Source: Escherichia phage vB_EcoS-BECP10. Taken from it: a DNA stretch of 47,915 nucleotides. Location: the sequence record MW286156.1; one strand, written 5' to 3'. Shown in pieces: positions 1 through 47,915 of the stretch. The notes under the pieces were generated by a model that saw only the letters and a list, made by a program, of their open reading frames with translations, was not told the DNA's origin and ran no database searches. Position 1 is the first letter of the stretch, and every line of letters starts with the position of its first letter. A program made the position numbers and the translations under genes.

Positions 1-99
1 ACGAATAGCACTTTTTGCTAAAGACAAATGGGGATGGCAAGGCTATAGTAAACTCATCAACAACGAGGAGATAGATATGAAGGTAAAAATAACAGCACT
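1..99. repeat. Terminal direct repeat: bases 1-99 are identical to 47817-47915 (window wraps around a circular or terminally redundant genome)
   Basis: Exact match of the first 99 nt to the last 99 nt, read directly from the sequence. Confidence 0.9.
4..76 (+). promoter_or_regulatory. Early promoter module 1: TAGCA-N5-TGCTA element (6-20), -10-like TATAGT, leader CTCATCAACAACGAGGAG
   Basis: AATAGCACTTTTTGCTAAAG followed about 22 nt later by TATAGT and a box-2 variant, then RBS GAGGAG and ATG at 77. Confidence 0.6.
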
Positions 100-271
100 A
101 AGTAAAACGGATGGTTTTGACGATGAAGAATACGAATTCTACGGCCTTGAGCCTGGTGGTGTTTACAATGTAGTGGCTGTATACGAAGAGCTTGAGTCAA
201 TGGTGATAAAGAACAAGCATGATAGAAACGTAATGGTATACAACTTCGAGGTAGAGCGGTATGAAGATTGA
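77..271 (+). CDS. Hypothetical early protein (64 aa)
   Basis: ORF track; strong RBS GAGGAG 7 nt upstream; first gene after module 1. Confidence 0.5.
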   Translation: MKVKITALSKTDGFDDEEYEFYGLEPGGVYNVVAVYEELESMVIKNKHDRNVMVYNFEVERYED

Positions 272-440
272 TAAAGACGATTTGCGCCACGAATGCGCAC
301 TGATTGGACTTAACGAAGTTTACACCAACCTTGTGCTGCGCGGAAAGCTGGACATTGATTTGGCTAAGCAATTCCAGTCAGAAGATGAATTTCTGTGCTG
401 CGATGGACTTGGCTGCGTCGAATGTTTACCATTTATTTGA
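261..440 (+). CDS. Hypothetical small Cys-rich protein (59 aa, CCDGLGCVEC)
   Basis: Hand-translated ORF overlapping stop of previous gene (ATG at 261); below the 60-aa track cutoff. Confidence 0.3.
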   Translation: MKIDKDDLRHECALIGLNEVYTNLVLRGKLDIDLAKQFQSEDEFLCCDGLGCVECLPFI

Positions 441-450
441 GGATTGAGAT

Positions 451-690
451 ATGAAAATTCGCTGCACAAACGTTATTAACAGTACAGACAAAAAGGTTTT
501 GACGCCATTTGTAAAAGGCTCTGTATACGAAGCTGAGCTGCTAATCATTAACTGCAAGACAATCCCGAACGAGTGGGTGATTAATGGCGCCGAGCGACCG
601 CACAAGCACGATTCTGGATGGATTGCTATCGCAGGTTGGAAGGTCGGAATGTTTATCCCTGGTGTCGCAACTTTTGATGAGGTGAGGTAA
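451..690 (+). CDS. Hypothetical early protein (79 aa)
   Basis: ORF track; RBS GAGGATTGAG upstream. Confidence 0.5.
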   Translation: MKIRCTNVINSTDKKVLTPFVKGSVYEAELLIINCKTIPNEWVINGAERPHKHDSGWIAIAGWKVGMFIPGVATFDEVR

Positions 691-843
691 ATGCTTAAAC
701 CATCTGATTTGAACTATTACGATCTAGAAACTATAGCAAAGTACAGCGGTAAGGGTTGGCCTGTTGGTGACTACTTCAAAGAAGATTTGATTGAGAGCTT
801 CAACATCGTCCAGAAGGCAATTGCAAAAGCAGCAAAGAAATAG
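691..843 (+). CDS. Hypothetical small protein (50 aa)
   Basis: Hand-translated; RBS GAGGTGAGG; ATG abuts previous stop; TAG stop lies inside the next IR element. Confidence 0.35.
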   Translation: MLKPSDLNYYDLETIAKYSGKGWPVGDYFKEDLIESFNIVQKAIAKAAKK

Positions 844-917
844 CACGAATTGCTAAAGCCCTTCGTGGCTTTTATTGTATATTCATCTCATCGAAACGAA
901 ACTAAGGAATCACGAAG
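839..917 (+). promoter_or_regulatory. Early promoter module 2: IR 841-855, hairpin AAGCCCTTCGTGGCTT, TGTATATT, CATCGAAACGAAA
   Basis: TAGCACGAATTGCTA, then 22 nt containing a GC hairpin, TATATT, conserved leader, RBS AAGGA. Confidence 0.65.
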
Positions 918-1220
918 ATGATTAACATGAACCTGTTTACAGCCGAAGACCATAACAACATGAATGAATTAGCTAACCTTTTCGAGACTGCTGGCATGGC
1001 AGAGATGTTCATGACTGAAAATGAGTTCAAGGATGGCATTAGCAACGCTATCGAAACAAATTTCGGTGATGCTCGCGTGACTGGTTCAATGTTCGCAAAC
1101 ATCGCTCGTAAATTCTTCCAGACGTACCGCGATTCACGCCACGCAAAGGGCACTTTTGGTGCCGCTAAAAGCGTAGGCGAAACAATCCGCGACTATATCG
1201 AACGTCATAACGCTAACTAA
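918..1220 (+). CDS. Hypothetical early protein (100 aa)
   Basis: ORF track; directly downstream of module 2. Confidence 0.5.
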   Translation: MINMNLFTAEDHNNMNELANLFETAGMAEMFMTENEFKDGISNAIETNFGDARVTGSMFANIARKFFQTYRDSRHAKGTFGAAKSVGETIRDYIERHNAN

Positions 1221-1245
1221 TAACAAACCAAAAAGGAAAATAGTA

Positions 1246-1599
1246 ATGGCTACCACTATCACTAAAAACTGGATCAGCTCAGATAACAATCTGTTTAAAG
1301 CTCGCGTTAAAGATGGTATTGAGCAAATCAAGATTCATGGTAAATGGCAAAATCTCACTGGCCGGGGTCGTTACGTCAAGACCAAGACTTTGCTTTGCAC
1401 TTTCGTGAACCACAAGTCACCACTCAAGAAGAGTTTCAGTAAGGGTAAGCGTTACCAGGTATCAATGACTGCATCACTTGGTCGTAACGCTGGGTATATT
1501 TATGATGAAGACGGCGAGGGCTGGCAGTTGACGCGTGATGAAGAAGTTGGCTTTGATGTGGGTTATGGGATGTATAAGTTTGAGGCGGCTTACAAATGA
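1246..1599 (+). CDS. Early protein, paralog family member 1 (117 aa)
   Basis: ORF track; RBS AAAGGAAAA; about 60 percent identical to 2415..2768 by eye (shared KTKTLLCT, GKRYQ, LGRNAGYIYD, GWQLTRD, GMYKFEA). Confidence 0.6.
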   Translation: MATTITKNWISSDNNLFKARVKDGIEQIKIHGKWQNLTGRGRYVKTKTLLCTFVNHKSPLKKSFSKGKRYQVSMTASLGRNAGYIYDEDGEGWQLTRDEEVGFDVGYGMYKFEAAYK

Positions 1600-1805
1600 T
1601 TGTTTCAGGTTATTCCATCGCTGTTTATTGCGACTGTAAGAAGTGCTCAACTGAGTCAAATTATGATGGTTCTTATTTTATGCCACACTATACGGACGCT
1701 GCGGGCGAGAACTTTTCTGATTGTGCAAGGCAACTTAAAGATGCTGGGTGGGTTTTGCATAAGAAGGATGGAAAATGCTATGCGCCAGGGCACTTAAAAA
1801 AATAG
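1596..1805 (+). CDS. Hypothetical Cys-rich small protein (69 aa)
   Basis: ORF track; ATGA overlap with previous gene; CDCKKC and other Cys residues. Confidence 0.45.
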   Translation: MIVSGYSIAVYCDCKKCSTESNYDGSYFMPHYTDAAGENFSDCARQLKDAGWVLHKKDGKCYAPGHLKK

Positions 1806-1883
1806 CACTTTTTGCTAATGACACTACCCGCTTCGGCGGGTATATTTGTTTCCATCAAGAAGACAAGCACTAAGGTGAACAAA
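1801..1883 (+). promoter_or_regulatory. Early promoter module 3: IR 1803-1817, hairpin CCCGCTTCGGCGGG, TATATT
   Basis: AATAGCACTTTTTGCTAATG, GC hairpin, TATATTTG, RBS TAAGGTG. Confidence 0.55.
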
Positions 1884-2000
1884 ATGAAAAACATCTCTAA
1901 AGCAGTTGATGCGGTAATGGAACAAGTAATTAAGTTTGGTTTCTTTGGCTTCATGGGCGCAATCGCTGTTGTAGTTGGCAAATGTCTGGTTGGTCTTTAA
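1884..2000 (+). CDS. Small hydrophobic protein (38 aa, predicted membrane helix)
   Basis: Internal ATG of track ORF 1812..2000 with RBS; FGFFGFMGAIAVVVG hydrophobic segment. Confidence 0.3.
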   Translation: MKNISKAVDAVMEQVIKFGFFGFMGAIAVVVGKCLVGL

Positions 2001-2080
2001 TGGCACTTTTTGCTAAAGACCTTAACAACAAAAATTGATATATTCTCTTCATCGAAACAAAACAACGAAAGGCAAAGAAA
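1999..2080 (+). promoter_or_regulatory. Early promoter module 4: variant IR TGGCAC-N5-TGCTA (2001-2015), TGATATATT, CTTCATCGAAAC
   Basis: TGGCACTTTTTGCTAAAG then extended -10-like TGATATATT and leader box. Confidence 0.55.
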
Positions 2081-2254
2081 ATGATTATTTTGACTCTGAT
2101 GGTTATCGCAGTATTCTTCCCTACGGTTGCCCTGATGGTTGTTGAAGTGATTGATGCTCGCGACACTAAAAAAACTTACGAAGCAATCAATGCTAACCGC
2201 CGCCCTTCCAAGTTCGAAGGTGCTAAATTCTCTACCAACTACAAGGCTCACTAA
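2081..2254 (+). CDS. Small membrane protein (57 aa)
   Basis: Hand-translated; RBS AAAGGCAAAG; N-terminal hydrophobic helix MIILTLMVIAVFFPTVALMVV. Confidence 0.35.
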   Translation: MIILTLMVIAVFFPTVALMVVEVIDARDTKKTYEAINANRRPSKFEGAKFSTNYKAH

Positions 2255-2418
2255 TGTTTGACAACTTTCATGACGCAATTGAGGAGGCTGCATTCAGGGC
2301 ATCACTTGATCGGAAGATTTACGGTTTAGTTCAGAAGGTTGATAAGATTGTGGTGCGTATCGTGCGCAAATCAGTACCAAACAAATTCATGTGGACAACG
2401 AAGAGATTAACAAAATGA
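2254..2418 (+). CDS. Hypothetical small protein (54 aa)
   Basis: Hand-translated; TAATG overlap upstream and ATGA overlap with next gene. Confidence 0.3.
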   Translation: MFDNFHDAIEEAAFRASLDRKIYGLVQKVDKIVVRIVRKSVPNKFMWTTKRLTK

Positions 2419-2768
2419 CTACTACACTGACTAAAAACTTCATTAGCAACAATAATGTACTCTACAAAGCTCGCGTTAAAGATGGTTTAGAGCAGATCAA
2501 GAAAAATGGAAAATGGATTAACCTTGAAGAGCGCGGCAAATACATTAAGACAAAGACACTACTTTGCACCAAGGTTGACCACAGCAATCCACTTAAGAAA
2601 TCATTCACTGAAGGTAAGCGTTATCAGATATCTATGCACGCTGGATTAGGTCGTAATGCTGGCTATATCTACGACAATGAAGGTGACGGCTGGCAGCTCA
2701 CTCGCGATGATGAAGTTGGCTATGATGTAGGCTTTGGGATGTATAAGTTTGAGGCCCAATACAAATGA
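2415..2768 (+). CDS. Early protein, paralog family member 2 (117 aa)
   Basis: Internal start of track ORF 2391..2768 matching the N-terminus of 1246..1599 (MTTTLTKNF vs MATTITKNW). Confidence 0.6.
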   Translation: MTTTLTKNFISNNNVLYKARVKDGLEQIKKNGKWINLEERGKYIKTKTLLCTKVDHSNPLKKSFTEGKRYQISMHAGLGRNAGYIYDNEGDGWQLTRDDEVGYDVGFGMYKFEAQYK

Positions 2769-2959
2769 ATGAGAATGTAAGAATCTACATAACAAGAGAT
2801 GCGATTTATTGCAAGTCTCTACAGTACGGAACTAAGTACAGATACTGCAAAGATAGAGGCCGCTTCTGTGTTATTGATTACATAAACCTTGATGGATTGC
2901 TTGAAACTTTTCTAGATACATTCCCAAGCGATAAGCTTTGGAACGGAGTTCCTTTTTAG
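2765..2959 (+). CDS. Hypothetical small protein (64 aa)
   Basis: ORF track; ATGA overlap with previous gene. Confidence 0.45.
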   Translation: MNENVRIYITRDAIYCKSLQYGTKYRYCKDRGRFCVIDYINLDGLLETFLDTFPSDKLWNGVPF

Positions 2960-2961
2960 TA

Positions 2962-3037
2962 AATAGCACTAATTGCTAAAGCCCTTCGGGGCTTTTCCTG
3001 TATATTCATCTCATCGAAACGAAATGGAGTTACTAAA
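2962..3037 (+). promoter_or_regulatory. Early promoter module 5: IR 2964-2978, hairpin AAGCCCTTCGGGGCTT, TGTATATT, CATCGAAACGAAA
   Basis: AAATAGCACTAATTGCTAAAG, hairpin, TATATT, conserved leader, RBS GGAG. Confidence 0.65.
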
Positions 3038-3259
3038 ATGATTAACTTTAAAGAAGCAGCAACAGAAATTATGGACTTCGAGCGAGAGCTAATATGGATG
3101 GGACATAATATGACCAATCTGGAAATTGCTAACCAGATTTGGCACTCTAAGATGAATCCACAGGATAGATTAGAAGTTATGAACATAGTGGGCGAAGTGA
3201 AAGGTAGTGCATTAATGAAGCTTCGCGCTTGTCATTCTTACATTGCCAAGCAACTTTAA
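3038..3259 (+). CDS. Hypothetical early protein (73 aa)
   Basis: ORF track; downstream of module 5. Confidence 0.45.
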   Translation: MINFKEAATEIMDFERELIWMGHNMTNLEIANQIWHSKMNPQDRLEVMNIVGEVKGSALMKLRACHSYIAKQL

Positions 3260-3272
3260 GGGGGTAGATAAT

Positions 3273-3464
3273 ATGACGCAGGAGCAGGTTGTACAACTAA
3301 TGGTACGCTATAACCAGATATTAGCATTACTTAAGGCTGAGCGTGTAGACCAATCTGACCGCGATGCTGTAAAGGCGTGCCTATCTGAGACTGTTCAACC
3401 AAAACATAACTATGACTGTTATATTTACTTTTACGGTAGGACAATACCGTTTGATTTGGAATAG
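3273..3464 (+). CDS. Hypothetical early protein (63 aa)
   Basis: Internal ATG of track ORF 3243..3464 preceded by RBS AAGGGGG. Confidence 0.4.
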   Translation: MTQEQVVQLMVRYNQILALLKAERVDQSDRDAVKACLSETVQPKHNYDCYIYFYGRTIPFDLE

Positions 3465-3505
3465 CGTTAGTTTGTATTTTCTTTGATTGATATATCAAAC
3501 TAGCA

Positions 3506-3586
3506 AATAGCACTTTTTGCTAAAACAAAATCGCAAGGATGCGGTATTATCTTTACATCGAAACGAAAAAGCGAAAGGTAAAAAAA
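3506..3586 (+). promoter_or_regulatory. Early promoter module 6: IR 3508-3522, hairpin CGCAAGGATGCG, TATTAT, CATCGAAACGAAA
   Basis: AATAGCACTTTTTGCTAAAAC, hairpin, TATTAT, leader, RBS AAAGG. Confidence 0.65.
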
Positions 3587-3838
3587 ATGAATACTTCAAA
3601 TAAAAACTTTATTACTTCATATAAAAAACTCCTTAAAGAACGCCTTGGTAAAAAAGACTTAGGGCATGACAAAATGGGATTTAAAGAAGGAAATCCTCAT
3701 CATGTTCTCGTGACTGGTTCAATATCCGGATCAACTAGCTACATTTACGACGAACATGGGAACGAGCGGCAGCTATACCTTAATGATGACTCTGGAACCT
3801 GCACCATTTGCGGAACATACGCATGGGAGGTTCAATAA
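3587..3838 (+). CDS. Early protein, divergent paralog family member 3 (83 aa)
   Basis: Internal start of track ORF 3539..3838; shares NKNFI...YIYDE.G motifs with the two 117-aa paralogs. Confidence 0.45.
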   Translation: MNTSNKNFITSYKKLLKERLGKKDLGHDKMGFKEGNPHHVLVTGSISGSTSYIYDEHGNERQLYLNDDSGTCTICGTYAWEVQ

Positions 3839-3844
3839 AAATTT

Positions 3845-3919
3845 AATAGCACAAATTGATAATGAATTATAAGCGGTCGTTGATATAATGGCCGCTCAGA
3901 AACAACACGGAGAGAAGTA
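3845..3919 (+). promoter_or_regulatory. Promoter module 7: degenerate IR TAGCAC-N5-TGATA (3847-3861), hairpin, TGATATAAT
   Basis: AATAGCACAAATTGATAATG, hairpin GCGGTCG..., extended -10-like TGATATAAT, RBS GGAGAG. Confidence 0.5.
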
Positions 3920-5503
3920 ATGTTTGATTTCAACGAAGATAAACTATCTGTCGAGCAGGTAATGTCTGTTGCAGCAGCCGAGAATTTACCACCTCTGCGA
4001 GTAGCAATTAATGCAAATGGCTATCGTCAGAGCGCATCATTCTGGAAAGCTCCTGTCGAGATTGATTCCACTGGAGACAAATATCCAGTCATCTCGCTCG
4101 GCAATGATTGTGATGTCGTTGGTAAGTTATCAAGCAATATCGCACGCTCTGTTCAGTTCCCGGAGTCATCTGCTTATATGCACTTCCTGGGATGTATTTC
4201 AGCCGCAATGCTTGGTCGATTCACAGTTGAGTATCATGGCACTCAGCAGCCTACTGCGCTGTACGTCGTAACCAGTCAGCCACCATCAACTGGTAAATCT
4301 GCTATTAACTCATTGTCAATCGCGCCAATGATTGCAGAAACTGAGCGACTGAATGAATTACGCAAGCGTGACCGTAAGAAGATTATGGCTAAGTTGTCAG
4401 CCCTGGCAAAAGAAATGAAGCAAGAGAAGTCACCATCTGAGATGGCTGGATTATTCGAAGAGAAAGAGGAGTTGGAAGAGAAGTTAGAAAAGCTGTGTGA
4501 CATTGTGTTCCCAGTATCCGACACCACTCCGGAAGGTCTTGCGCGAATTAACAGTCGTCAGGGTAACTTCTCCGTCATCTCGGATGAGGCAACAAGTGTG
4601 AACTCATTACTTGGCATGACATACGGTGATGGCTCGAAGAAAACGAACAGCGAGCTCGTTCTTAAGGCGTGGGATGCTGGTAACGTATCTATAGCGCGTG
4701 CGAATGCAGAGAATAACATGAGTTTTGTTGCCATGGGCTGTATTTCTGTAATTGCGCAGGATGAGACAATAGTTGCGATCATGAATGCCGGTGCTCGTGG
4801 TATTGGTGTCTCAGAACGTTTCTTGCTAGTACGTGAGAAATCACTCCTTGGTGAGCGTGTGTTCGTCGATGATGATGGCGAGTCAACATATGAACCAATT
4901 GACGGATCGTTGAAGGCTGATTACTTCCGTCTTGTTCATGAAATTATGAGTGAGCAAGATGTGAAGTTGACTATTAGTAACTCAGCAATGAAGCACCTTA
5001 ACCGTGCTCGACAGGAAATGGAGCCACACCTTGCAGATGGCGGTAAGTATTCACACACAATGCTGCGCGGCGCGTTAGGTAAAATGGATAAACAGGTAAT
5101 TCGCCTTGCTGCCGTTCTTCACACTATCCGTAACTGGTTTAACCCCAATGGCGGTAGTCCGCAGAAGTCCAGGGAGATTGAACTGGAAACCATGCAAGAG
5201 GCTTTGTTGATGTTTGGAGAACTTAGTAAGACTTACTTATCCTCAGCTAACGCAGCTGGTCATGCTGGCGATAACGCTGAGATGAACAAGTTAATTGATA
5301 TCCTTATCAAGCAAGGCAAGAACAGTAAAGGAGTTGTGGGTTTGCGTTCACTTTATGAAGCTGCGCGTAAGGTTCGACCTTTCGAGTCACAGGCTGGTGT
5401 TATGGCTAAAATTAAAGACCACTTACTCCCGATGCTTGATGATAAAAACTATACCTGCCTGATTGGTGACAAGGTATATATCAATCCACGGCTGCTGGGG
5501 TAA
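3920..5503 (+). CDS. P-loop ATPase of unknown function (527 aa); N- and C-terminal regions paralogous to 46081..46641
   Basis: ORF track; Walker A-like SQPPSTGKS and Walker B-like VISDEAT; N-terminus MFDFNEDKL...NLPPLRVAIN.NGYRQS and C-terminus shared with the 186-aa ORF. Confidence 0.6.
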   Translation: MFDFNEDKLSVEQVMSVAAAENLPPLRVAINANGYRQSASFWKAPVEIDSTGDKYPVISLGNDCDVVGKLSSNIARSVQFPESSAYMHFLGCISAAMLGRFTVEYHGTQQPTALYVVTSQPPSTGKSAINSLSIAPMIAETERLNELRKRDRKKIMAKLSALAKEMKQEKSPSEMAGLFEEKEELEEKLEKLCDIVFPVSDTTPEGLARINSRQGNFSVISDEATSVNSLLGMTYGDGSKKTNSELVLKAWDAGNVSIARANAENNMSFVAMGCISVIAQDETIVAIMNAGARGIGVSERFLLVREKSLLGERVFVDDDGESTYEPIDGSLKADYFRLVHEIMSEQDVKLTISNSAMKHLNRARQEMEPHLADGGKYSHTMLRGALGKMDKQVIRLAAVLHTIRNWFNPNGGSPQKSREIELETMQEALLMFGELSKTYLSSANAAGHAGDNAEMNKLIDILIKQGKNSKGVVGLRSLYEAARKVRPFESQAGVMAKIKDHLLPMLDDKNYTCLIGDKVYINPRLLG

Positions 5504-5507
5504 TTAA

Positions 5508-5843
5508 ATGTTCATCCTTGATGTGTTCAAGTTCTGCGAGAGCTACGAAAAGTTTAACAGGCAGCACCTGGCGGTATTCATTTACCGCCACAAAGAATGT
5601 GAAAGAATGGCTAAGGCAGCTGGAGTTAATGCGCGTTACTTTGCATCATCTGCGTCAAAGGAGTTTCTGGCAAGATGCATGACTGAAGGTTACATCGATG
5701 GAGTTAATGGCAGTTACTGGAGCAAAGGAAGCACGAAGCGACCATTCGGTTTTAGCTTTAGGTGCCTCGGAGGTGAGAGTGATAAGTACACCAATGAGAT
5801 GATGACCATAAAAGAAATGACAGACGACCAACTGTTCGCGTAA
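5508..5843 (+). CDS. Hypothetical protein (111 aa)
   Basis: ORF track; last gene of the plus-strand early arm. Confidence 0.45.
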   Translation: MFILDVFKFCESYEKFNRQHLAVFIYRHKECERMAKAAGVNARYFASSASKEFLARCMTEGYIDGVNGSYWSKGSTKRPFGFSFRCLGGESDKYTNEMMTIKEMTDDQLFA

Positions 5844-5845
5844 AA

Positions 5846-5872
5846 TAAAGGAGCCATTAGGCTCCTTTTTTG
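5846..5872. terminator. Bidirectional intrinsic terminator between convergent early and lysis transcription units
   Basis: Hairpin AAAGGAGCC-ATTA-GGCTCCTTT flanked by A and T runs. Confidence 0.6.
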
Positions 5873-6261
5873 TTTCCTGCGAATCTTAAAGCGAAGTAAG
5901 TTAGCAAACCTGAAACTAATCCAGCCAGAATACCCCAGACTAAAGAGTCAAAGCCAGAATTTTCAGTGCTATGAATTTCAATCTTTTCAGCTGTTATTGT
6001 GTTGGCTGATAGTCCTGTAGCGGCTGTCTTTTTCTGGCTTGATGAATCTACGTCTCTGTTAGTTGAGTTGCGCATGTCGCTTTCTGTTGAGCTAGATTTG
6101 TCTGTTTGATTTGACAATCCAACTCCTGTTTTCTGGTTGGACTCACCAACCTGCGCGGTTGCCTCTACGCCATCCTTTGCTGGTAAGAAATCAGAAATGG
6201 CTGACATAGCAGAGCACCCTGTCAGCAAGATAATTGCCAGAACTACAACTCCGAAACGCAT
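5857..6261 (-). CDS. Unimolecular spanin (outer-membrane lipoprotein with C-terminal TM helix, T1 gp11-like)
   Basis: Lipobox LLTGC after signal peptide; C-terminal hydrophobic helix LVWGILAGLVSGLLTYFAL; position 3' of the endolysin. Confidence 0.65.
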   Translation of the reverse strand: MRFGVVVLAIILLTGCSAMSAISDFLPAKDGVEATAQVGESNQKTGVGLSNQTDKSSSTESDMRNSTNRDVDSSSQKKTAATGLSANTITAEKIEIHSTENSGFDSLVWGILAGLVSGLLTYFALRFAGNKKGA

Positions 6262-6725
6262 AGCTTCACCTCCGCGTCACGTCTATTATCCAAACCCTTA
6301 GATACAACCTTTTTACCATTAATTGTAATCTTGTTAAATAGCCTTAAGGCATTGCAACCGCCATAGATATCTCCGGAATTAATCTTCCTCATTGCCGTTG
6401 ATTTGCGCATCGCATTAGTTCCCACGTTGAATGAGAAACTATACAAGGCAGCCCTGGTGCTAACTGGAACATCAACCTTTAACGCTTTATCAACAGCGGC
6501 ACGATGAATTGACAAGTGCTTCATAAGTAGTGCATCACACTCTCGCTGTGTGTAAACCTTGCCCAGAATAACGTCAGGACCAGTGATTCCTGCGCAAATA
6601 GTCCATACCCCAGCAACATCCTTGTAAGGCTTGTACTCAACGCCTTCATGCTCATTAAGGAACGGAACCGCCAGAGCCATGGCACCAGCCACAGCAGAAC
6701 CAATTACCTTATTTTTAATGCTCAT
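6243..6725 (-). CDS. SAR endolysin (T4-lysozyme-like muramidase with N-terminal signal-anchor-release domain)
   Basis: N-terminal weakly hydrophobic Gly/Ala-rich segment VIGSAVAGAMALAVPFL followed by an E-8aa-D-5aa-T catalytic triad (EHEG...D...T). Confidence 0.75.
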   Translation of the reverse strand: MSIKNKVIGSAVAGAMALAVPFLNEHEGVEYKPYKDVAGVWTICAGITGPDVILGKVYTQRECDALLMKHLSIHRAAVDKALKVDVPVSTRAALYSFSFNVGTNAMRKSTAMRKINSGDIYGGCNALRLFNKITINGKKVVSKGLDNRRDAEVKLCVSEL

Positions 6726-6940
6726 TATTTACTCCTGATTCTTATTGCCTCTCGAATATCCCCATCTTCAAGTGCTTTATGGAGCGCCTTACTGTCACGC
6801 CAGCGCAGCCATGCGCCAAAAATACCAAAGCATACGGCGATAACTAAGCCAATAATGCCGATGATTGTGTTGTCAGATAAACCGCCACCCATAGCTACTC
6901 CGCTACCGGACAAGGCGGCTGCGTCATAGAAATGCTTCAT
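6725..6940 (-). CDS. Holin, probably pinholin class (71 aa, two TM segments)
   Basis: Two hydrophobic segments, charged C-terminus, immediately upstream of the SAR endolysin; RBS AAAGAGG. Confidence 0.6.
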   Translation of the reverse strand: MKHFYDAAALSGSGVAMGGGLSDNTIIGIIGLVIAVCFGIFGAWLRWRDSKALHKALEDGDIREAIRIRSK

Positions 6941-7002
6941 GTTGCGGCCTCTTTAAGTTGATTTGATTAAATAATACCAGATATTAAACTTTGACATAAA
7001 AG

Positions 7003-7030
7003 AAAAAAGGCAGCCATAAAGGCCGCCTGT
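7003..7030 (-). terminator. Intrinsic terminator upstream of the lysis cassette
   Basis: Minus-strand hairpin GGCGGCC-TTTAT-GGCTGCC followed by T-run. Confidence 0.5.
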
Positions 7031-7054
7031 TTGCAAGTTGATGTTTCTTATAAG

Positions 7055-7228
7055 TTAGTCTGCGATAATGAATTCCACCAGTTCTCCATCAATGGGAGCG
7101 AAGATCCAAGTCATGTCATCGCCATAAATCTTATAATTACCATCCCCCTGGTACTCACCACTGTAAGGGTTGTTTACAGTGAAAGGTAGTGATTTTGATT
7201 TGTTGCTAACGCAGAATAATTTAGTCAT
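7055..7228 (-). CDS. Hypothetical small protein (57 aa)
   Basis: Hand-translated ORF with RBS AAGAG; below track cutoff. Confidence 0.3.
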   Translation of the reverse strand: MTKLFCVSNKSKSLPFTVNNPYSGEYQGDGNYKIYGDDMTWIFAPIDGELVEFIIAD

Positions 7229-7240
7229 TTTGATAATCTC

Positions 7241-7429
7241 TTAACGGTTTACGCAAATAAGTGTGTTTACATTAATTGGGAAGCAGTTACCACCAATGGT
7301 CTTAATCATTACGAAAATACAGCCAGGGTAATACTCAAGGCTTGTAGCCTTAACTACCTGCGGTGGGCAGTTTAAGAACAAAACTTCATCACCCACCTTA
7401 ACCATGTCGGCTTTAATTGTTTGAAGCAT
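7241..7429 (-). CDS. Hypothetical protein (62 aa)
   Basis: ORF track; start overlaps the stop of 7429..7614. Confidence 0.4.
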   Translation of the reverse strand: MLQTIKADMVKVGDEVLFLNCPPQVVKATSLEYYPGCIFVMIKTIGGNCFPINVNTLICVNR

Positions 7430-7614
7430 TAGCGCTCTCCAAGTGCATCTAGGATTGCGTAGGCAATTTCACGAGCATTTTTAGCAGTAAGATTGATAGT
7501 GTCAACTTTTACATCTTCTTCGCTAGAGCCGTATGCCTGCGCAATCTTAAAGGTCTTACCAAAACCAACATCTTTAACTTCGATTTGTGCATCTGATTGT
7601 GTGAATTTAGCCAT
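7429..7614 (-). CDS. Hypothetical protein (61 aa)
   Basis: ORF track; first gene downstream of module 9; RBS AGAGGA. Confidence 0.5.
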   Translation of the reverse strand: MAKFTQSDAQIEVKDVGFGKTFKIAQAYGSSEEDVKVDTINLTAKNAREIAYAILDALGER

Positions 7615-7691
7615 CTTTGTATCCTCTCGTTTGTTTAGATGGGGTAACTATACCCCATCTTTTGATTTTCGTTTTAGCAATTCGTGCTATT
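7615..7691 (-). promoter_or_regulatory. Promoter module 9 (minus): IR 7675-7689, hairpin overlapping TATAGT, leader variant CATCTAAACAAACGAGAGG
   Basis: Minus-strand reading AAATAGCACGAATTGCTAAAAC then GGGGTATAGTTACCCC and a box-2 variant. Confidence 0.55.
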
Positions 7692-7953
7692 TAGACTTTA
7701 TTTGACTCCACTATATAGCACTCAAGGACAATCTTTTTATCATCAACATTCATCGTGCTGTGATTAAGCCAATCAACAACCGTTCTTAATTCCACTCATT
7801 CATGGTAAATCTCTTTTCCAAGTTCACAATACTGTTGAGATACCAATGGAGATGAAAGGCTTGCAACTAAAATCATCTCTGTAATCATTTTGATTCCTAT
7901 ATCTGTAGCTGACGCATCTCAAAAGCCTCGAAGGGCTTTAACAAAAAGTGATA

Positions 7954-9087
7954 TTATTTGAACATTTCTGGACGGCAGATAAAGCGACCAACCTCACCAA
8001 ACTCTTTATGATAGATGATTACCGCGGCCTGCCTTTGTGAGCGCCATCCACTATTCGCACTATATGCATCTGGTGAACCAATCTGACCATGAACCTCATC
8101 AATACCAAGATTTGTCTCTGTAATCTTCTGTGAATGCCAGTGGCCTGAGTGGGTGTATACATAATCACTTAAACCAAAGTCACGTCGCCAGTCAGTAGCC
8201 ATAACCGAAAGGCGAGTATCAGCTTTACGCATTTGATGCCCGTGAGTGAAACCAAGCATTGTAGAACCAAACTTAGTTACCATCATTGCCGCGGGACTAA
8301 CATCAATACTAACGCGTGGCTCTTCCTCATAAAATGCAGCAAGCGCAGCCCGCAACCAAACCATACCACTTTCATCATGATTACCAGATATAACTTTAAC
8401 CTCTACGTTTTCATGTTTGCTAAGCATGTTTCGAATTGCGCGGCGAACCGCTCGAATGCAAACATAAACAATCTTGGCGTAGCGACTGTCACTGTCCAGG
8501 ATGTGACCACTGGCTGGAGTTTTGGCTTCCAAAGAATCATAATGAAGCAGATCACCTCCTAGCACTAGTACAGCATTCTTTGAATTTGGAGATTTCTGTA
8601 TGGCGTAGTCAAAATAATCGTTCATTACTTTCTCTGCCGTTGCTGTGTCGTAGTTTTCTCCGCACTCATGCTTGTGGGCCATTGCGCCAATGTGAAGGTC
8701 AAATACTGGATACATAGCTAAAGTATCTTCATCAAAATTCAGACCTTCAGATTTAACTGCTTTTTCTTTTGGTAGCTCGCTAGAGAATGCCTCTCGCGCT
8801 TGATTCATCATCTCCTCAAGCTTCTCTGCATCAATAGAGGACTTAACCCATTGCAACTTCACATTGCCATCATTATCAACAAGGCTAGATACACCTTTAA
8901 CCATGTAGCCCTGAGGAATTAGGTTACTCACATCGCGACCGTGACCATCCCCAGCCTTAGCCAACTTGCTGCGACGCAGCTCTACGTTACGAATATTCAT
9001 ACCGTACTTCTCTGCGATTGCCTTGTTAGTCATACCGTTAGCCAGTTCTTGCTTTAACTCTTCGTTGGTGATTTTAGCTATAGCCAT
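7954..9087 (-). CDS. HTH-containing calcineurin-like metallophosphoesterase (377 aa; possible nuclease or phosphatase)
   Basis: Metallophosphoesterase motifs DLHIG, GGDLLHYD, GNHDE, THGH, HSGHWH; N-terminal HTH-like segment MTNKAIAEKYGMNIRNVELRR. Confidence 0.65.
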   Translation of the reverse strand: MAIAKITNEELKQELANGMTNKAIAEKYGMNIRNVELRRSKLAKAGDGHGRDVSNLIPQGYMVKGVSSLVDNDGNVKLQWVKSSIDAEKLEEMMNQAREAFSSELPKEKAVKSEGLNFDEDTLAMYPVFDLHIGAMAHKHECGENYDTATAEKVMNDYFDYAIQKSPNSKNAVLVLGGDLLHYDSLEAKTPASGHILDSDSRYAKIVYVCIRAVRRAIRNMLSKHENVEVKVISGNHDESGMVWLRAALAAFYEEEPRVSIDVSPAAMMVTKFGSTMLGFTHGHQMRKADTRLSVMATDWRRDFGLSDYVYTHSGHWHSQKITETNLGIDEVHGQIGSPDAYSANSGWRSQRQAAVIIYHKEFGEVGRFICRPEMFK

Positions 9088-9101
9088 TATTTAATTTCCT
9101 G

Positions 9102-9170
9102 TTAGCAGATTATGAAGTACATGATTATAAAGGTTAATGGCATAGCCATCAACGGTAGTAATGTTTTCAT
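9102..9170 (-). CDS. Possible 22-aa hydrophobic leader peptide (MKTLLPLMAMPLTFIIMYFIIC) between module 10 and the phosphoesterase gene
   Basis: Hand-translated; sits exactly between the conserved leader box and the RBS of the 377-aa gene; may be non-coding. Confidence 0.2.
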   Translation of the reverse strand: MKTLLPLMAMPLTFIIMYFIIC

Positions 9171-9243
9171 CTGAATCGTCTCTCGTTTCGATGAACACAC
9201 TATACGCCATCCATGGCGATGTGTTTTAACAAAAAGTGCTATT
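9171..9243 (-). promoter_or_regulatory. Promoter module 10 (minus): IR variant 9227-9241, hairpin CGCCATGGATGGCG, TATAGT, TTCATCGAAACGAGAG
   Basis: Minus-strand AAATAGCACTTTTTGTTAAAAC then hairpin, TATAGT and leader box. Confidence 0.6.
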
Positions 9244-9496
9244 TTACTTCTTTTAGCCAGTAATCAAGAAACTCAGTTTCTAGAGCAGAAATTGCTGGTG
9301 AATACTCACTAGGCATCATCATATTGCAACCTGGCGAATAGTACATCAACTCAGCTTTACCAATCTCAATTTGCACCAGTACATCGAGGTAGTCCGGAGG
9401 AATCCACTCAGAGAAAGGAATCTTCCGATAAGGCTTCTCACCAAAAAACACAACCTGATACTTACTCTCATCAAAATCTAGACCAGGTAAATTCAT
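9239..9496 (-). CDS. Hypothetical protein (85 aa)
   Basis: ORF track; TAG stop lies inside the IR of module 10. Confidence 0.45.
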   Translation of the reverse strand: MNLPGLDFDESKYQVVFFGEKPYRKIPFSEWIPPDYLDVLVQIEIGKAELMYYSPGCNMMMPSEYSPAISALETEFLDYWLKEVK

Positions 9497-9777
9497 TTCT
9501 TCGCACCTTTCTTAAATATCTTCTTACCTTCCTCACGATACATTGCGAGGCTAGGCGTTGCTGTAACTCTTACATACTTGCGTGGCCGCTGGTTCATATA
9601 ACTAAACTTCCCATTGAAAACTACAGATATGTCATCAATATCAAAGTATTTACCTATCATCTTGATGTCATCCTGCAATCCCGCCTCTCCACAATGCGCC
9701 CATACAGCGGCGCGTCCTGTTTCAACTATCATAGGCCGTAAGCCATTTTTAAATATTCTCGAGCGCACATCCAGCAA
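9493..9777 (-). CDS. Hypothetical protein (94 aa); 5' end overlaps a 41-aa ORF in another frame (9729..9854)
   Basis: ORF track; the true start or a frameshift is unresolved. Confidence 0.35.
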   Translation of the reverse strand: MLDVRSRIFKNGLRPMIVETGRAAVWAHCGEAGLQDDIKMIGKYFDIDDISVVFNGKFSYMNQRPRKYVRVTATPSLAMYREEGKKIFKKGAKK

Positions 9778-9854
9778 TATTCAGATCCAGTCTTAACTGC
9801 GTCATTTGCGAAAGACTGCGCAATCTCGAACATCTCTTTGTCTATAATTTTCAT

Positions 9855-9929
9855 CTCTTAACCCTCTCATTTGCTGATGTAATTAATATAATCCATCCTT
9901 GTATTTTAGTTTTAACAAAAAGTGCTATT
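9855..9929 (-). promoter_or_regulatory. Promoter module 11 (minus): IR variant 9913-9927 without a clear leader box
   Basis: Minus-strand AAATAGCACTTTTTGTTAAAAC followed by TATATTAAT; no CATCGAAACGA box. Confidence 0.45.
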
Positions 9930-10129
9930 TACTCATAAACAAGAAAACTTACATGCTTACCTTTCGCATCATTACACCCGTAGTACCCATCAAATTCATT
10001 ATGTAACTTCCATGCAAATCCGTCATCGCTAACTATTTCAACCTGGTCATTAATCGGGTCAAGTTTGAATTCATACTCATTGAGCAGGGTGAATGAGCCG
10101 TTCGTCATTACGCAAGTCGCAGTAATCAT
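9929..10129 (-). CDS. Hypothetical protein (66 aa)
   Basis: Internal Met of track ORF 9929..10147 giving ATGA coupling with the upstream gene. Confidence 0.4.
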   Translation of the reverse strand: MITATCVMTNGSFTLLNEYEFKLDPINDQVEIVSDDGFAWKLHNEFDGYYGCNDAKGKHVSFLVYE

Positions 10130-10538: not shown

Positions 10539-10614
10539 TTTGTTTCTCTCTCTTCGTTTCGATGAAGTAACTATATCGCATCCTTGCGAAATCTCTTTAG
10601 CAATTCGTGCTATT
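10539..10614 (-). promoter_or_regulatory. Promoter module 12 (minus): IR 10598-10612, hairpin TCGCAAGGATGCGA, TATAGT, TTCATCGAAACGAAGAG
   Basis: Minus-strand CAAATAGCACGAATTGCTAAAG, 22-nt spacer with hairpin, TATAGT, leader. Confidence 0.65.
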
Positions 10615-12929: not shown

Positions 12930-13010
12930 AATATCAAATGCCTTTAATGTTCGTTCGATTGACGATATAATAACAGCCATCTAAACCAATGTTTAACAAA
13001 AAGTGCTATT
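12930..13010 (-). promoter_or_regulatory. Promoter module 13 (minus) for the helicase: IR variant 12994-13008, TATTAT, leader CAATCGAACGAAC
   Basis: Minus-strand AATAGCACTTTTTGTTAAAC, about 22 nt, TATTAT, leader, RBS AAAGG; divergent from the 13022 gene. Confidence 0.55.
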
Positions 13011-13021
13011 GAGGTGAGAAA

Positions 13022-13495: not shown

Positions 13496-13502
13496 AAATT
13501 AA

Positions 13503-18419: not shown

Positions 18420-18491
18420 ACTTTTCCTCTCGTTGTCGATGAGGTAACTATACCTCACCGATTTAATGTTGTTTTAGCTATTCGTGCTGTT
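18420..18491 (-). promoter_or_regulatory. Promoter module 14 (minus): IR variant 18475-18489, hairpin over TATAGT, leader CCTCATCGACAACGAGAGG
   Basis: Minus-strand CAGCACGAATAGCTAAAAC then GAGGTATAGTTACCTC and leader box. Confidence 0.55.
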
Positions 18492-20512: not shown

Positions 20513-20648
20513 CTCTCGTTTTTGGGGTTGAATTATTTTCACTCCCGTATTTTGTGGTGCATTTTTTTGCATCAAAAGCAGCACCACTGCTGCCGGTGAG
20601 TGCACTATAACCAATCAGGAAGCATCAGTTTTGATTATTCGTGCTATT
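20513..20648 (-). promoter_or_regulatory. Promoter module 15 (minus): half-degenerate IR 20632-20646 upstream of the Rha-like gene
   Basis: Minus-strand AAATAGCACGAATAATCAAAAC; leader box poorly conserved. Confidence 0.4.
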
Positions 20649-20649: not shown

Positions 20650-21003
20650 GTATATCTGTGTAAAACTCACCTAAATACGGTTCGCTACCTTCTAAACCGC
20701 ACCAGCACTGGCTGTAACTCTTGTAACCAATGTATCCACCACAATTGCACCCTATCTATATCTATATGCATCCCCTCCTTAACAGGAAGTCAAACATAGT
20801 ATTTTAGAAAAACACACCAACATAACCATAGAGAGTAGTTACAATATATACAAACAAATATAGTAATAATAATAATTACTCTAAACCCTTATTATATAAG
20901 GATTCTATAGTGTAACTAATGCGTATCTTCGCGTAAAAAGCGTATACAATTTTCCGCGTATGAGATTGTATACATCGAGTTACATCGGTTACGCGTATAT
21001 CAA
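20650..21003. promoter_or_regulatory. AT-rich ORF-free control region A at the minus/plus divergence point; partly homologous to region B
   Basis: No ORF of 60 aa or more; shares TAATAATAATAAT, TTATATAAGGAT, TAGTGTA, GCGTATA.AATT, ACATCGG, ACGCGTATAT blocks with 47490-47640. Confidence 0.5.
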
Positions 21004-21088
21004 ATAGCACGATTTGCTAAAGACTCCAGCAGAAGCCTTTGCTATAGTTACTCCATCGAAACGAAACATACTTACTAAGGAATACAAA
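21004..21088 (+). promoter_or_regulatory. Promoter module 8: IR 21006-21020, TGCTATAGT, CATCGAAACGAAA
   Basis: AAATAGCACGATTTGCTAAAG, about 23-nt spacer, extended -10-like TGCTATAGT, leader, RBS AAGGA. Confidence 0.65.
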
Positions 21089-25300: not shown

Positions 25301-25752
25301 AAATCTCCATTCTCTTCTTGCTTAACGAGCCGAGGCCAGAACAGTTTAACGCGGATTGCTGATAGCTGACTGTTGTTAACTGCGATGATGTAAGGTGTGT
25401 CGTTGTTAATTTCACGACTAACCTGAATCTCTGATGCCGCGCCATCTAGTCCTGCGATGTAATCTTGGGATTGAGTGCCGGCGCGAAACTCAGCTGTCAC
25501 ACCTTCATAGTTGAATGAGTTATCCTGGTTCTGTACTGGAACGTCAGCAAGGTAAACATCCTTAAGTGAGAAGCTAGAATCAACTTCGCCATCAGCTACA
25601 GCCAGTAGCACCTTAATCTTGTTAAGTGAAATCAGGTTATCTTCTTGCTCTACAGGCGTGTGCGGCTTCTTGCTACCACCCTTGCTTCCATAAATCTTTG
25701 GCAAATCGGCCATATCATATAACCTCGTTGTTTGTTTAACCATTTGTGCCAT
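22327..25752 (-). CDS. Central tail fibre / host specificity protein (lambda J-like, 1141 aa)
   Basis: Size, position after I/K/L/M, and conserved J-family blocks. Confidence 0.8.
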   Translation of the reverse strand: MAQMVKQTTRLYDMADLPKIYGSKGGSKKPHTPVEQEDNLISLNKIKVLLAVADGEVDSSFSLKDVYLADVPVQNQDNSFNYEGVTAEFRAGTQSQDYIAGLDGAASEIQVSREINNDTPYIIAVNNSQLSAIRVKLFWPRLVKQEENGDLNGTTCEYAIDLSVNGAAYTEYTRGVANGKTTTGYDRSIRVNLPAEFSSALVRIRKLTPDSTSSTLVNGMQITTYQEVIDAKFRYPLTALVYVEFSSDLFPNGIPTIAIKKKWKLIRVPTNYNPETRTYSGAWNGTFKMAWSDNPAWVLYDLVVSQRYGLDQRELGVEIDKWGLYEAAQFCDQMVPDGKGGMEPRYTCNVVIQQKVEAYQLIRDICSIFRGLTFYDGEQIGIVVDRPRQPSYVFTNDNVVDGLFNRTFSSDKSLYTTANVQFDDEQNNYQQDVEPVFDLEATRRFGYNPVDLTAIGCVRRSEANRRGRWLLKTNLRSETVTFTTGLEGMIPMIGDVIAVNDQAWSSNYTLNLSGRIVEATGLQVFVPFAIDADPGDRILINKPDGSPEYRTIASVSADKLTLELNTAFSFTPQPDTVFAIDKQNLALQQYVVTGIQKANTDGEDSFQYSITAVQYDPNKYDEIDYGVNIDDRPTSIVDPDRILPPENITVTSYSKVVQGLSVETMVIGYDKVQYAKTYNVQWRKNNGNWINVPETANTEVDIEGIYAGIYDVRVRAVTDQKSVSAWSDITTVSLTGKIGEPSALPVITASDDEVFGIRVKWGFPTDSADTAYTELQQVPDNGDGTYNPESASLLTLVPYPQYEYWHTTLPAGNVRWYRARIIDRIGNVSPWTDFVRGMASDDVSAIIGDIKVDIENSDGYKYLLQNAIDANTDIQNQAEAIIENALANDTDVRVMKRENGARKAEYRQAVSLIADETQARVDSLTQLKAQIDDEIVGQITTIETALATETEARATADTQLSARLGDNEAALNQKLDSYATVEGVGVQYGVKLGLKYNGVEYGAGMSMELTGSGGNVRSQFIFDANRFAISNGISSGSGQWSLPFVVENNQVFIQSAVIQDGSITNAKIGNRIQSNNYVAGSAGWAIDKSGFAELSNATVRGSLYANNGNFAFNGTNNTVVINNNGITVNLPNGGRVVVGVW

Positions 25753-25760
25753 TCTACACT

Positions 25761-28120: not shown

Positions 28121-28184
28121 CTCTTTTTTAAGTTTTTTAATTGTAAACCTTCCTTGGTATTTCTGTTTAGCAATTAGTGCTATT
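28121..28184 (-). promoter_or_regulatory. Promoter module 16 (minus) inside the tail operon: IR 28168-28182
   Basis: Minus-strand AAATAGCACTAATTGCTAAAC; no CATCGAAACGA leader. Confidence 0.5.
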
Positions 28185-44898: not shown

Positions 44899-44975
44899 TT
44901 AATCTTTCCTCGTCTCATTTCGATAAAGTAATGGTAACGCATCCTTGCGATGGATGTTTAGCAATTTGTGCTATT
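44899..44975 (-). promoter_or_regulatory. Promoter module 17 (minus): IR 44959-44973, hairpin CGCAAGGATGCG, leader variant TTTATCGAAATGAGACGAGG
   Basis: Minus-strand CAAATAGCACAAATTGCTAAAC then hairpin and box-2 variant. Confidence 0.6.
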
Positions 44976-46023: not shown

Positions 46024-46098
46024 GGTTATTTCCTCTTTGTTGTTGATAGGGTAATCATAGCTGACTACCCAATTTATTGTTTAGCAATTTGTGCTATA
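46024..46098 (-). promoter_or_regulatory. Promoter module 18 (minus): IR 46082-46096, hairpin over TATGAT, leader CCCTATCAACAACAAAGAGG
   Basis: Minus-strand AATATAGCACAAATTGCTAAAC then GGGTA...TACCC hairpin and box-2 variant. Confidence 0.6.
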
Positions 46099-47816: not shown

Positions 47817-47915
47817 ACGAATAGCACTTTTTGCTAAAGACAAATGGGGATGGCAAGGCTATAGTAAACTCATCAACAACGAGGAGATAGATATGAAGGT
47901 AAAAATAACAGCACT
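47817..47915. repeat. Second copy of the terminal direct repeat (duplicates IR module 1 and the first codons of the 77..271 gene)
   Basis: Identical to 1-99. Confidence 0.9.

Follow-up and report, generated by a model that had tools for sequence, protein, structure and literature searches.

In the genome of Escherichia phage vB_EcoS-BECP10 (sequence record MW286156.1), nearly all transcription units, small-gene units at both ends of the sequence included, are preceded by copies of one 20-bp element, among them the copy at 2962-2981. This raises the question of what the element does and which protein reads it. We analyzed the whole stretch of 47,915 nt (the window), which is an almost complete Rogue1-like genome (Rogunavirus, Drexlerviridae); over 77% of the length of its first 8 kb, it shares 96.7% identity with vB_EcoS_Rogue1. 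An earlier reading of the same DNA, made from the letters without database searches (the sequence-only reading), had proposed a phage-specific promoter code, with the element replacing the -35 hexamer. On balance, we consider it probable that the element and the sequences following it form class II promoters activated by the host regulators MarA, SoxS, and Rob (or RamA).

In the form AATAGCAC-N4-TGCTAAAG (20 nt), the element has 20 matches with at most three mismatches on the two strands of the window, compared with 0.53 expected, and none of 100 dinucleotide-preserving shuffles reached this number. All 18 copies listed by the sequence-only reading were recovered, far above chance, and 17 of them are exactly where it had placed them, the remaining one lying at 21005-21019 rather than at 21006-21020. 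What these coordinates delimit is the 15-nt core TAGCA-N5-TGCTA; the N5 spacer given for the 20-bp element was a miscount, as the literal 21-nt form AATAGCAC-N5-TGCTAAAG has no matches in the window. Beyond the 18 copies, we found three more, marked in Table 1, and a match with three mismatches at 13471-13490 (+), which lies within an open reading frame (ORF) and is probably due to chance. The spacers of the window copies are of the types TTTT, GAAT, and A/TAAT, and the distance from the start of the element to the start codon is 72-86 nt. As claimed before, every promoter-type copy is oriented toward the downstream gene. The copies do stand in front of early and middle units, but the late (packaging and tail) region is preceded by the element as well. 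At 841-843, 1803-1805, and 1998-2000 the stop codon of the upstream ORF falls inside the element, formed either by TAG within ATAGCAC or by a TAA that overlaps the AATGGCAC variant, which shows that the copies and their downstream sequences are tightly packed against the preceding genes.

The element opens a cassette of constant order: the 20-mer, ∼19 nt of variable and usually GC-rich, self-complementary sequence, a TAnnnT hexamer (in the window TATAGT, TATATT, TATTAT, and TATAAT, among others), 6 nt, a conserved C-A, an A/C-rich leader, a Shine-Dalgarno (SD) sequence, and ATG. The distance between the 20-mer and the hexamer in the window is 19 nt in 13 copies, 20 nt in four, and 18 nt in one, so that the 22-23 bp previously noted between the TGCTA arm and a -10-like hexamer proved right. 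We extended this to 107 elements scoring at least 18 bits with a position weight matrix (PWM) in six Drexlerviridae genomes. A -10-like hexamer is located at exactly 19 nt in 82 of them, given a background of 2.7% per position (binomial P ∼4e-105), and within 18-20 nt in 97.

To describe conservation within the cassettes, we aligned the 66 with the 19-nt spacing and numbered the hexamer as -12 to -7. The 5' half of the element comprises A-50 (96%), T-49 (92%), A-48, G-47, C-46, and A-45 (100% each), and C-44 (93%); the middle is formed by K-43, W-42, W-41, T-40 (98%), T-39 (95%), and G-38 (98%), and the 3' half by Y-37 (C in 60%, T in 36%), T-36 (96%), A-35 and A-34 (98-100%), and A-33 (92%). 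Between the element and G-14 (77%) there is no conservation, and TG is found upstream of the hexamer in 41% of the cassettes. The hexamer itself, TAtaaT, has T-12 in 87% and both A-11 and T-7 in 100%, a pattern of conservation that identifies it as a predicted sigma70 -10 element. The C-A pair 7 nt past it (C-1 in 65%, A+1 in 86%) is the usual signature of a start site, and the starts given here are predicted from it. Positions -35 to -30 read AAAACn, with about 2 of 6 matches to TTGACA, hence no -35 hexamer is recognizable. The fixed spacing and the logo thus provide in silico support for the earlier suggestion that the element is centered at about -40 to -42 in place of the -35, which is the geometry of a class II activator site. 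Canonical sigma70 -35/-10 pairs are not enriched in positions 1-20000 of the window (32, compared with 42.4 ± 5.9 in shuffles).

The marbox has been described as a non-palindromic, oriented sequence 5'-gcannwwntgnnaaa-3', class II sites being forward marboxes that overlap the -35 hexamer (PMC12052159), and its consensus has also been given as GCAHWWWWTGYYAAA (PMC6900184). At the class II promoter of micF, which carries 5'-CACT-7N-AAA, RamA is located at about -41; of the helices of MarA, helix 3 recognizes CGTG/CACG and helix 6, at a distance of seven bases, TTT/AAA (PMC8811837). The logo of the phage cassettes from -47 to -33, G C A C K W W T T G Y T A A A, fits every specified position of three published marbox definitions. 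In particular, the T-type copy GCACTTTTTGCTAAA matches GCAHWWWWTGYYAAA at 15 of 15 positions. Exact matches to gcannwwntgnnaaa number 16 in the window, 15 of them in cassettes, against 1.06 expected, and those to AYNGCACNNWNNRYYAAA number 18 against 0.09. Conservation is one-sided: neither C-44 nor the run of A at -35 to -32 has a mirror partner, and the orientation is strict, therefore the element is not a symmetric dyad. The inverted repeat seen previously is present as the TAGCA-N5-TGCTA core, but it is largely a pseudo-dyad, GCA..TGY, intrinsic to the asymmetric marbox consensus. Judging from the sequence, the pattern A-Y-n-G-C-A-C-n-n-W-n-n-R-Y-Y-A-A-A is a marbox, the site of the monomeric MarA, SoxS, and Rob (RamA in Klebsiella and Salmonella), each with two helix-turn-helix (HTH) units. 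A phage-specific promoter code is not supported; the element appears to be a host marbox in the class II layout, as at micF, fumC, and waaY.

The phage matrix also finds the marboxes of the host. In 1.6 kb of the E. coli K-12 marRAB sequence, its top match is GATTTAGCAAAACGTGGCAT (13.4 bits, the next best scoring 1.6), which is the known mar marbox in the reverse orientation expected for class I; between the complement, ATGCCACGTTTTGCTAAATC, and the T-type copy of the phage there are 5 differences in 20 positions. The top match in 551 bp at micF is GACAGCACTGAATGTCAAAA; after 19 nt comes TAGAAT and, after another 7 nt, the base annotated as the first of MicF, a spacing identical to that of the phage cassettes. 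The fumC marbox, published at -39, reads ATGGCACGAAAGACCAAACA, with AATAAT ∼18 nt further on, and that of waaY/rfaY P1, published at -41, where MarA raised reporter activity about ten-fold, reads GTGGCACAAATGGGCAATT in a layout like that of the phage cassettes. Generally, class II sites cluster near -41 in the forward orientation, together with canonical -10 elements and start sites and no recognizable -35 (mean 1.9 matches), and in structures with Rob or SoxS, region 4 of sigma70 is displaced from the -35 element (PMC10268841). At the sequence level, the phage cassettes possess all features of a class II mar/sox/rob promoter.

The start sites, and the binding and activation by MarA, SoxS, or Rob, that we infer would combine as follows. 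A monomer of a host MarA-family protein would bind through its two HTH units, one at GCAC (-47 to -44) and the other at TAAA (-36 to -33). The bound monomer would contact RNA polymerase and recruit the sigma70 holoenzyme to a promoter with a good -10 (T-12 A-11 ... T-7, with G-14 in 77%) but without a -35. Transcription would begin at the conserved A of C-1/A+1, 7 nt past the hexamer, yielding an mRNA with a conserved A/C-rich leader of ∼25 nt and an SD. The unconstrained spacer (-31 to -13) and the discriminator would be reused for GC-rich hairpins, many of which may be terminators of the upstream unit.

The sequence-only reading had held that absence of the element from related phages would speak for a role other than that of a promoter. 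We searched five relatives with a matrix built from the window copies (PWM threshold of at least 11) and found 24 matches in T1 (Tunavirinae), 22 in TLS (Tempevirinae), 21 in RTP (Braunvirinae), 20 in Motto (Tempevirinae), and 13 in the Klebsiella phage mtp23 (Webervirus), hence the element is present in 13-24 copies in each, and this condition for refutation does not hold. It is invariant across subfamilies whose proteins share only ∼50-60% identity, and for this reason a conserved host reader fits; such a reader also agrees with the presence of the element before nearly every unit and with the search for a phage MarA homologue, which gave none.

The repeat itself has already been published. 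In the re-annotation of TLS, a 21-nt direct repeat, aaATAGCACnnnTTGnTAAAA, was reported at 21 places, 18 of them intergenic (DR1-DR18), co-oriented with transcription, ∼76 nt before start codons, and falling into T, G, and A spacer groups; similar repeats were stated for T1, Rtp, and Rogue1 (German, Misra, Kropinski et al., 2024, PMC11447400). Its function was left open, stoperators, enhancer-binding sequences, or UP elements being offered, and only three sigma70-like promoters were found in TLS (PMC11447400). In the papers on Rogue1 and AHP24, promoters were annotated only by similarity to TTGACA-N15-17-TATAAT or by a neural network. The TLS repeats and the window element agree in consensus, orientation, spacer types, and distance to start codons, while the published account contains no fixed -10 partner, class II geometry, or marbox identity. 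Our literature search yielded no mapping of transcription starts for any T1-like phage and, although not exhaustive, no earlier link between the marbox and these phages. What is new here is thus the link between a known repeat and a known kind of promoter, the class II marbox promoter. This reading would explain the near-absence of predicted sigma70 promoters in T1-like genomes, and it gives a repeat for which the 2024 paper had three guesses a concrete, testable mechanism.

Table 1. Cassettes and further copies of the element in the window (window coordinates; all transcription starts are predicted).
Span (strand)	Element	Spacer hairpin	-10 hexamer	Predicted +1	ATG	Remarks
4..56 (+)	4-23, AATAGCACTTTTTGCTAAAG		TATAGT 44-49	A56	77	Cassette 1; fits both marbox patterns exactly
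839..890 (+)	839-858	855-872	TATATT 878-883	A890	918	Terminator-like hairpin in the spacer
1801..1853 (+)	1801-1820	1825-1842	TATATT 1841-1846	1853		Hairpin/terminator
1999..2051 (+)	1999-2018, AATGGCAC variant		TATATT 2039-2044	A2051	2081	TAA of the upstream ORF overlaps the element
2962..3013 (+)	2962-2981	2978-2995, AAAGCCCTTCGGGGCTTT	TATATT 3001-3006	A3013	3038	Leader CATCGAAACGAAA
3506..3557 (+)	3506-3525	3530-3545	TATTAT 3545-3550	A3557	3587	
3845..3896 (+)	3845-3864, weaker, AATAGCACAAATTGATAATG		TATAAT 3884-3889		3920	-10 within a strong hairpin; serves the gene of a 527-aa DUF3987 ATPase (ATG 3920) and a 111-aa gene
7640..7691 (-)	7672-7691	7637-7660	TATAGT 7647-7652	A7640	7614	-10 at the tip of a 10-bp palindrome
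7936..7955 (-)	7936-7955, degenerate, AATATCAC...TGTTAAAG					Additional copy, probably a cassette that has decayed; a terminator-like hairpin comes next, and a -10 hexamer is missing at the standard distance
9192..9243 (-)	9224-9243	9205-9218	TATAGT 9199-9204	A9192		Hairpin CGCCATGGATGGCG; precedes the gene of the 377-aa phosphoesterase/exonuclease
9878..9929 (-)	9910-9929		TATATT 9885-9890	A9878		
10563..10614 (-)	10595-10614		TATAGT 10570-10575	A10563	10538	
12960..13010 (-)	12991-13010		TATTAT 12967-12972	A12960	12929	Cassette of the helicase gene
18440..18491 (-)	18472-18491, AACAGCACGAATAGCTAAAA	18436-18459	TATAGT 18447-18452	A18440		-10 within a strong hairpin; serves Erf and SSB genes
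20597..20648 (-)	20629-20648, degenerate 3' half, AATAGCACGAATAATCAAAA		TATAGT 20604-20609	A20597		PWM 14.4; serves Rha-like and RecE-like genes
21003..21055 (+)	21003-21022		TATAGT 21043-21048	A21055	21089	
25734..25753 (-)	25734-25753, marbox-like, AATGGCACAAATGGTTAAAC					Additional copy; 21 nt separate it from the probable start codon of the tail-fibre gene, too few for a -10
28133..28184 (-)	28165-28184		TACAAT 28140-28145	A28133	28111	In the tail gene region
44924..44975 (-)	44956-44975		TACCAT 44931-44936	A44924		Upstream of the small-gene/tRNA/terminase/structural block
46047..46098 (-)	46079-46098, TATAGCAC...	46043-46066	TATGAT 46054-46059	A46047	46023	-10 within the hairpin
47820..47872 (+)	47820-47839					Additional copy; duplicate of cassette 1

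Cassette 1 appears twice because the last ∼96 nt of the window (47820-47915) repeat the first (1-96); this agrees with either circular permutation and headful packaging of the genome or an assembly overlap. The leaders of the cassettes are A/C-rich (e.g., CATCGAAACGA... and AUCGAAACGA...) up to the SD. The initial transcribed sequence from +1 to +12 is conserved (e.g., 3013-3025 and 10551-10563 (-)), with A+1 in 86% followed by UCGAAACGA-like sequence in which U and G are nearly absent as far as the SD, GAGGA, and the leader length is near-constant at ∼25-30 nt. The shared leader may enhance translation or may simply be unstructured.

Nearly every cassette contains a GC-rich hairpin within -34 to +7, whose sequence varies while the pairing is kept in the window, T1, TLS, RTP, and mtp23. 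Over 80 cassettes, the mean energy of these hairpins is -10.7 kcal/mol and the mean z-score -3.1, with z below -2 in 66%. In one type, a tight stem with a UUCG or GAAA loop lies directly 5' of the -10, so that the -10 and the T-rich run downstream of it form the U tract; such hairpins are annotated as terminators in T1. In the other type, the arms flank the -10 hexamer on both sides. The hairpins are more stable on the sense than on the antisense strand by 2-3 kcal/mol (p ∼1e-6), which points to a role at the RNA level in read-through transcripts. Terminator-like hairpins as a whole are enriched in positions 1-20000 (27, compared with 15.4 ± 4.4). No Rfam family was found at the cassettes, and in the window only tRNA-Arg reaches the gathering score. 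This single tRNA-Arg gene (anticodon CCT; 43551-43626 (-)) lies upstream of the terminase genes, as described for Rogue1/JK06-like relatives.

Some marbox-like copies have an intact 5' half and a degraded 3' half and are located 15-21 nt before start codons, namely those of the tail-fibre gene (25734 (-) in the window, 25020 in T1, and 24907 in TLS) and of terS, encoding the small terminase subunit (8361 in T1). The tail-fibre copy is kept at the same gene in T1 and TLS, so that copies of this kind are shared between genera. As there is no room for a -10 hexamer, these copies are not promoters. In addition, several small early genes are paralogous: phrog_2684 is matched by two ORFs (1246-1599 and 3539-3838, both +), and the translation of 2391-2768 visibly resembles that of 1246-1599. 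Each belongs to a different cassette-headed unit, which suggests duplication of whole units.

Several points weigh against activation by MarA, SoxS, or Rob. No data on start sites, binding, or activation at these promoters were found in the literature search. A screen of the Keio single-deletion collection with the TLS-like phage LL5 (>90% identical to TLS) showed that only genes of the lipopolysaccharide (LPS) core, tolC, secB, and ppiB are required (PMC7229145). Since rob, marA, and soxS are absent from this list, they are individually dispensable, and a strict dependence on one factor is excluded. To accommodate this result, the three proteins may need to be redundant on the same sites, or the extended -10 (G-14 and a good -10) may need to be active independently of an activator. 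T1-like phages also multiply rapidly in plain broth. In unstressed cells MarA and SoxS, which need induction, are scarce, and Rob is largely aggregated under standard conditions (PMC10268841). Moreover, positions that are free ('n') in the marbox are near-invariant in the phages (A-48 in 100%, T-40 in 98%, and A-51/-50), which could reflect a second reader. Finally, Motto, with 18 cassettes, is labelled a Pseudomonas aeruginosa phage (GC content 45%), and Vc1, labelled a Vibrio cholerae phage, has six exact consensus matches compared with 0.08 expected in 40 kb; either these host labels are doubtful, or a compatible activator exists in these hosts, or MarA, SoxS, and Rob are not needed by the cassettes.

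The same promoter architecture could instead be read by a protein encoded by the phage, the likeness to the marbox being mimicry or coincidence, which we consider unlikely. The candidates are a Cro-like HTH protein (13022-13495; a homologue of T1 gp23), binding as a dimer to TAGCA-N5-TGCTA, or a protein, early or injected, that has escaped recognition; expressed before the rest from a canonical sigma70 promoter of its own, such a regulator would turn on all other cassettes and repress itself. The gene of the HTH protein is found in 830 phage records, nearly all of them from Drexlerviridae, is always divergent from the helicase cassette, and has one of the rare canonical sigma70 promoters (P57 in TLS; TTGAAT-17-TATAAT in T1; and, in the window, TTTAAT at 12943-12948, 17 nt, and TATAAT at 12966-12971 (+), with ATG at 13022), while its leader carries the element in reverse, an autoregulatory layout. 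Besides, A-48 and T-36 extend the dyad past the needs of the marbox consensus, single deletions of rob, marA, and soxS do not block a TLS-like phage, and the element is kept in the phages labelled as those of Vibrio and Pseudomonas.

The sequence-only reading had named the HTH protein as a possible binder, but its properties do not agree with this. The predicted fold (pLDDT, the predicted local distance difference test, 88.9; best matches, the Cro proteins of Xfaso 1 and N15) is a single Cro-type HTH rather than the dual HTH of MarA, and the predicted recognition helix (residues 65-75) varies widely, at the positions that usually contact bases, among homologues whose DNA elements are identical (TRQAVE, SNQTVQ, NLKTVW, PYVTVR, and SIQVVQ). 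An asymmetric, strictly oriented element, with C-44 and the AAAA tail on one side, is unfit for a symmetric dimer. The other two binders suggested there fare no better, the Rha-like protein having no counterpart in the T1 annotation and the 377-aa protein being a conserved metallophosphoesterase/exonuclease. A phage homologue of MarA was not found either: with E. coli MarA as the query, phmmer gave a best E-value of 0.71 among all six-frame ORFs from five phage genomes, and no AraC-type Pfam domain was matched among the 20 proteins scanned. Lastly, a chance match to all specified marbox positions combined with class II orientation and spacing is very improbable.

The HTH and helicase promoters are arranged back to back at 12943-13024 and share their -10 region, with TATAAT at 12966-12971 (+) for the HTH gene and TATTAT at 12967-12972 (-) for the helicase cassette. 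This layout, also seen in TLS (P57/DR11) and T1, suggests mutual interference or autoregulation. The gp23-like protein itself has an invariant N-terminal peptide, DKRxxNGNNGTxRxxDxKxR, predicted to be disordered, and an invariant C-terminal GFRAxFCRPDLxFDxNGK, around the variable Cro-type HTH, and its gene immediately precedes that of the primase. Instead of regulating transcription in the classical sense, it may act in replication or in interaction with the host.

We find it quite improbable that the cassettes are factor-free extended -10 promoters of sigma70, the element being an UP-like or curvature element touched by the C-terminal domain of the alpha subunit in RNA polymerase, or a modulator of strength. 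The near-consensus -10 with G-14 in 77% and TG in 41% of the cassettes would suit such promoters, the Keio screen yielded no host transcription factor, and an enhancement of the UP-element kind is among the options of the TLS authors. Still, UP elements are A/T-rich sequences at -40 to -60 with no invariant G or C, while G-47, C-46, C-44, and G-38 are invariant at 93-100%, so an UP element proper was rejected. In addition, ∼30 bits of conserved information at a fixed distance would be unexpected for a non-specific contact, and the exact marbox match is left unexplained.

Very improbable, in our view, is a negative, RNA-level, or recombination role, in which the element would be a stoperator-like repressor site or roadblock, a UAGCA/UGCUA RNA hairpin acting with the adjacent terminators, or a linker for cassette shuffling. 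It draws on the copies lacking a -10 just before the tail-fibre and terS start codons, on the commonest variant, C-37 to T, which retains a G-U pair, on the significant adjacent spacer hairpins with their more stable sense strand, and on the stoperator idea raised in the TLS paper. Against this, the razor-sharp spacing to the -10 and to the C-A start is a property of promoters, and the element lies upstream of the predicted +1 and is therefore not contained in the transcript that it heads. The RNA hairpin, which has no Rfam family match, is disrupted in other variants (7936, 3845, and 18472), and the phage is virulent, without a known repressor system.

That the TAGCA-N5-TGCTA dyad is a site of Lrp, a global regulator of the host, seems extremely improbable. 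Both arms and the 5-nt spacer fit YAGHAWATTWTDCTR, which we take to be the Lrp consensus from systematic evolution of ligands by exponential enrichment (SELEX), and Lrp is conserved in enteric bacteria; yet the invariant C-44, the one-sided AAAA tail, the strict orientation, and the class II position, all of which the marbox model explains, would be unaccounted for, and Lrp usually acts through arrays of sites rather than a single site at -41. Other promoter types were rejected outright. The sigma54 promoter has TGGCAC-N5-TTGC, a start ∼12 nt after the GC, and no -10 hexamer, while in the (T/A)GCAC..TTGC of the cassettes the distance from G to G is 9 where 11 would be needed, and further on there is a conserved -10 hexamer at constant spacing. 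TTGCTA as a sigma70 -35 would require a spacer of 22 bp, with no TAnnnT 17 nt downstream, and a sigma32 reading of the discriminator CCCCAT, present in some copies only, has no TTGAAA partner.

If the class II marbox reading holds, its meaning may extend to the whole family. It is possible, if somewhat doubtful, that T1-like phages (Drexlerviridae, including Klebsiella Webervirus phages used in therapy) hand almost all promoter recognition to the host MarA/SoxS/Rob/RamA regulon. If true, a virulent phage family would be dependent on, or tuned by, the regulators that make E. coli, Klebsiella, and Salmonella intrinsically multidrug-resistant. Its gene expression would be set by the state of antibiotic, bile-salt, and oxidative stress in the host, and multidrug-resistant overproducers of MarA or RamA would be especially permissive hosts. 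Conversely, replicating phage DNA, with near-consensus marboxes numbering in the hundreds to thousands, would titrate the regulators and blunt the host response. This would have consequences for phage-antibiotic synergy, for the selection of phages in therapy against marR and ramR mutants, and for the explanation of why T1-like phages do well in the bile-rich gut, and would provide ∼100 natural high-affinity marboxes of known geometry for studies of activation by the MarA family.

Among known systems, the middle promoters of T4 combine a sigma70 -10 with a MotA box (containing TGCT) that replaces the -35, is centered at -30, and is read by MotA and AsiA. They share with the cassettes an activator box and a sigma70 -10 without a -35, while the element considered here is near -41, with no phage reader identified, and an analogy to the MotA box was rejected because of this wrong position. 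In the middle and late promoters of Mu, activated by Mor and C, and in class II promoters of CRP and FNR, an activator site near -41 to -43.5 lies over a missing -35 and the host sigma70 holoenzyme is used; these activators are dimers on symmetric dyads, whereas the element considered here has the asymmetry and the orientation expected of a site for a monomeric dual-HTH protein. The stoperators of mycobacteriophage L5, a comparison made for TLS (PMC11447400), are similar in being many copies of one short asymmetric site oriented with transcription, but they are repressor sites inside the units of a temperate phage, without a fixed relation to a -10. With the class II host promoters of micF, fumC, waaY/rfaY P1, and lpxC P2, the cassettes have in common an asymmetric marbox of ∼20 bp with GCAC and YYAAA blocks 7 bp apart, lying forward at about -39 to -41 in place of the -35, together with a canonical sigma70 -10 and a start site, predicted in the phage. 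In the host, each promoter has a single, degenerate marbox, while the phage copies, ∼18-24 per 48 kb, are closer to the consensus than the E. coli marRAB marbox and, unlike the host ones, sit in a conserved cassette with a hairpin, a leader, and an SD.

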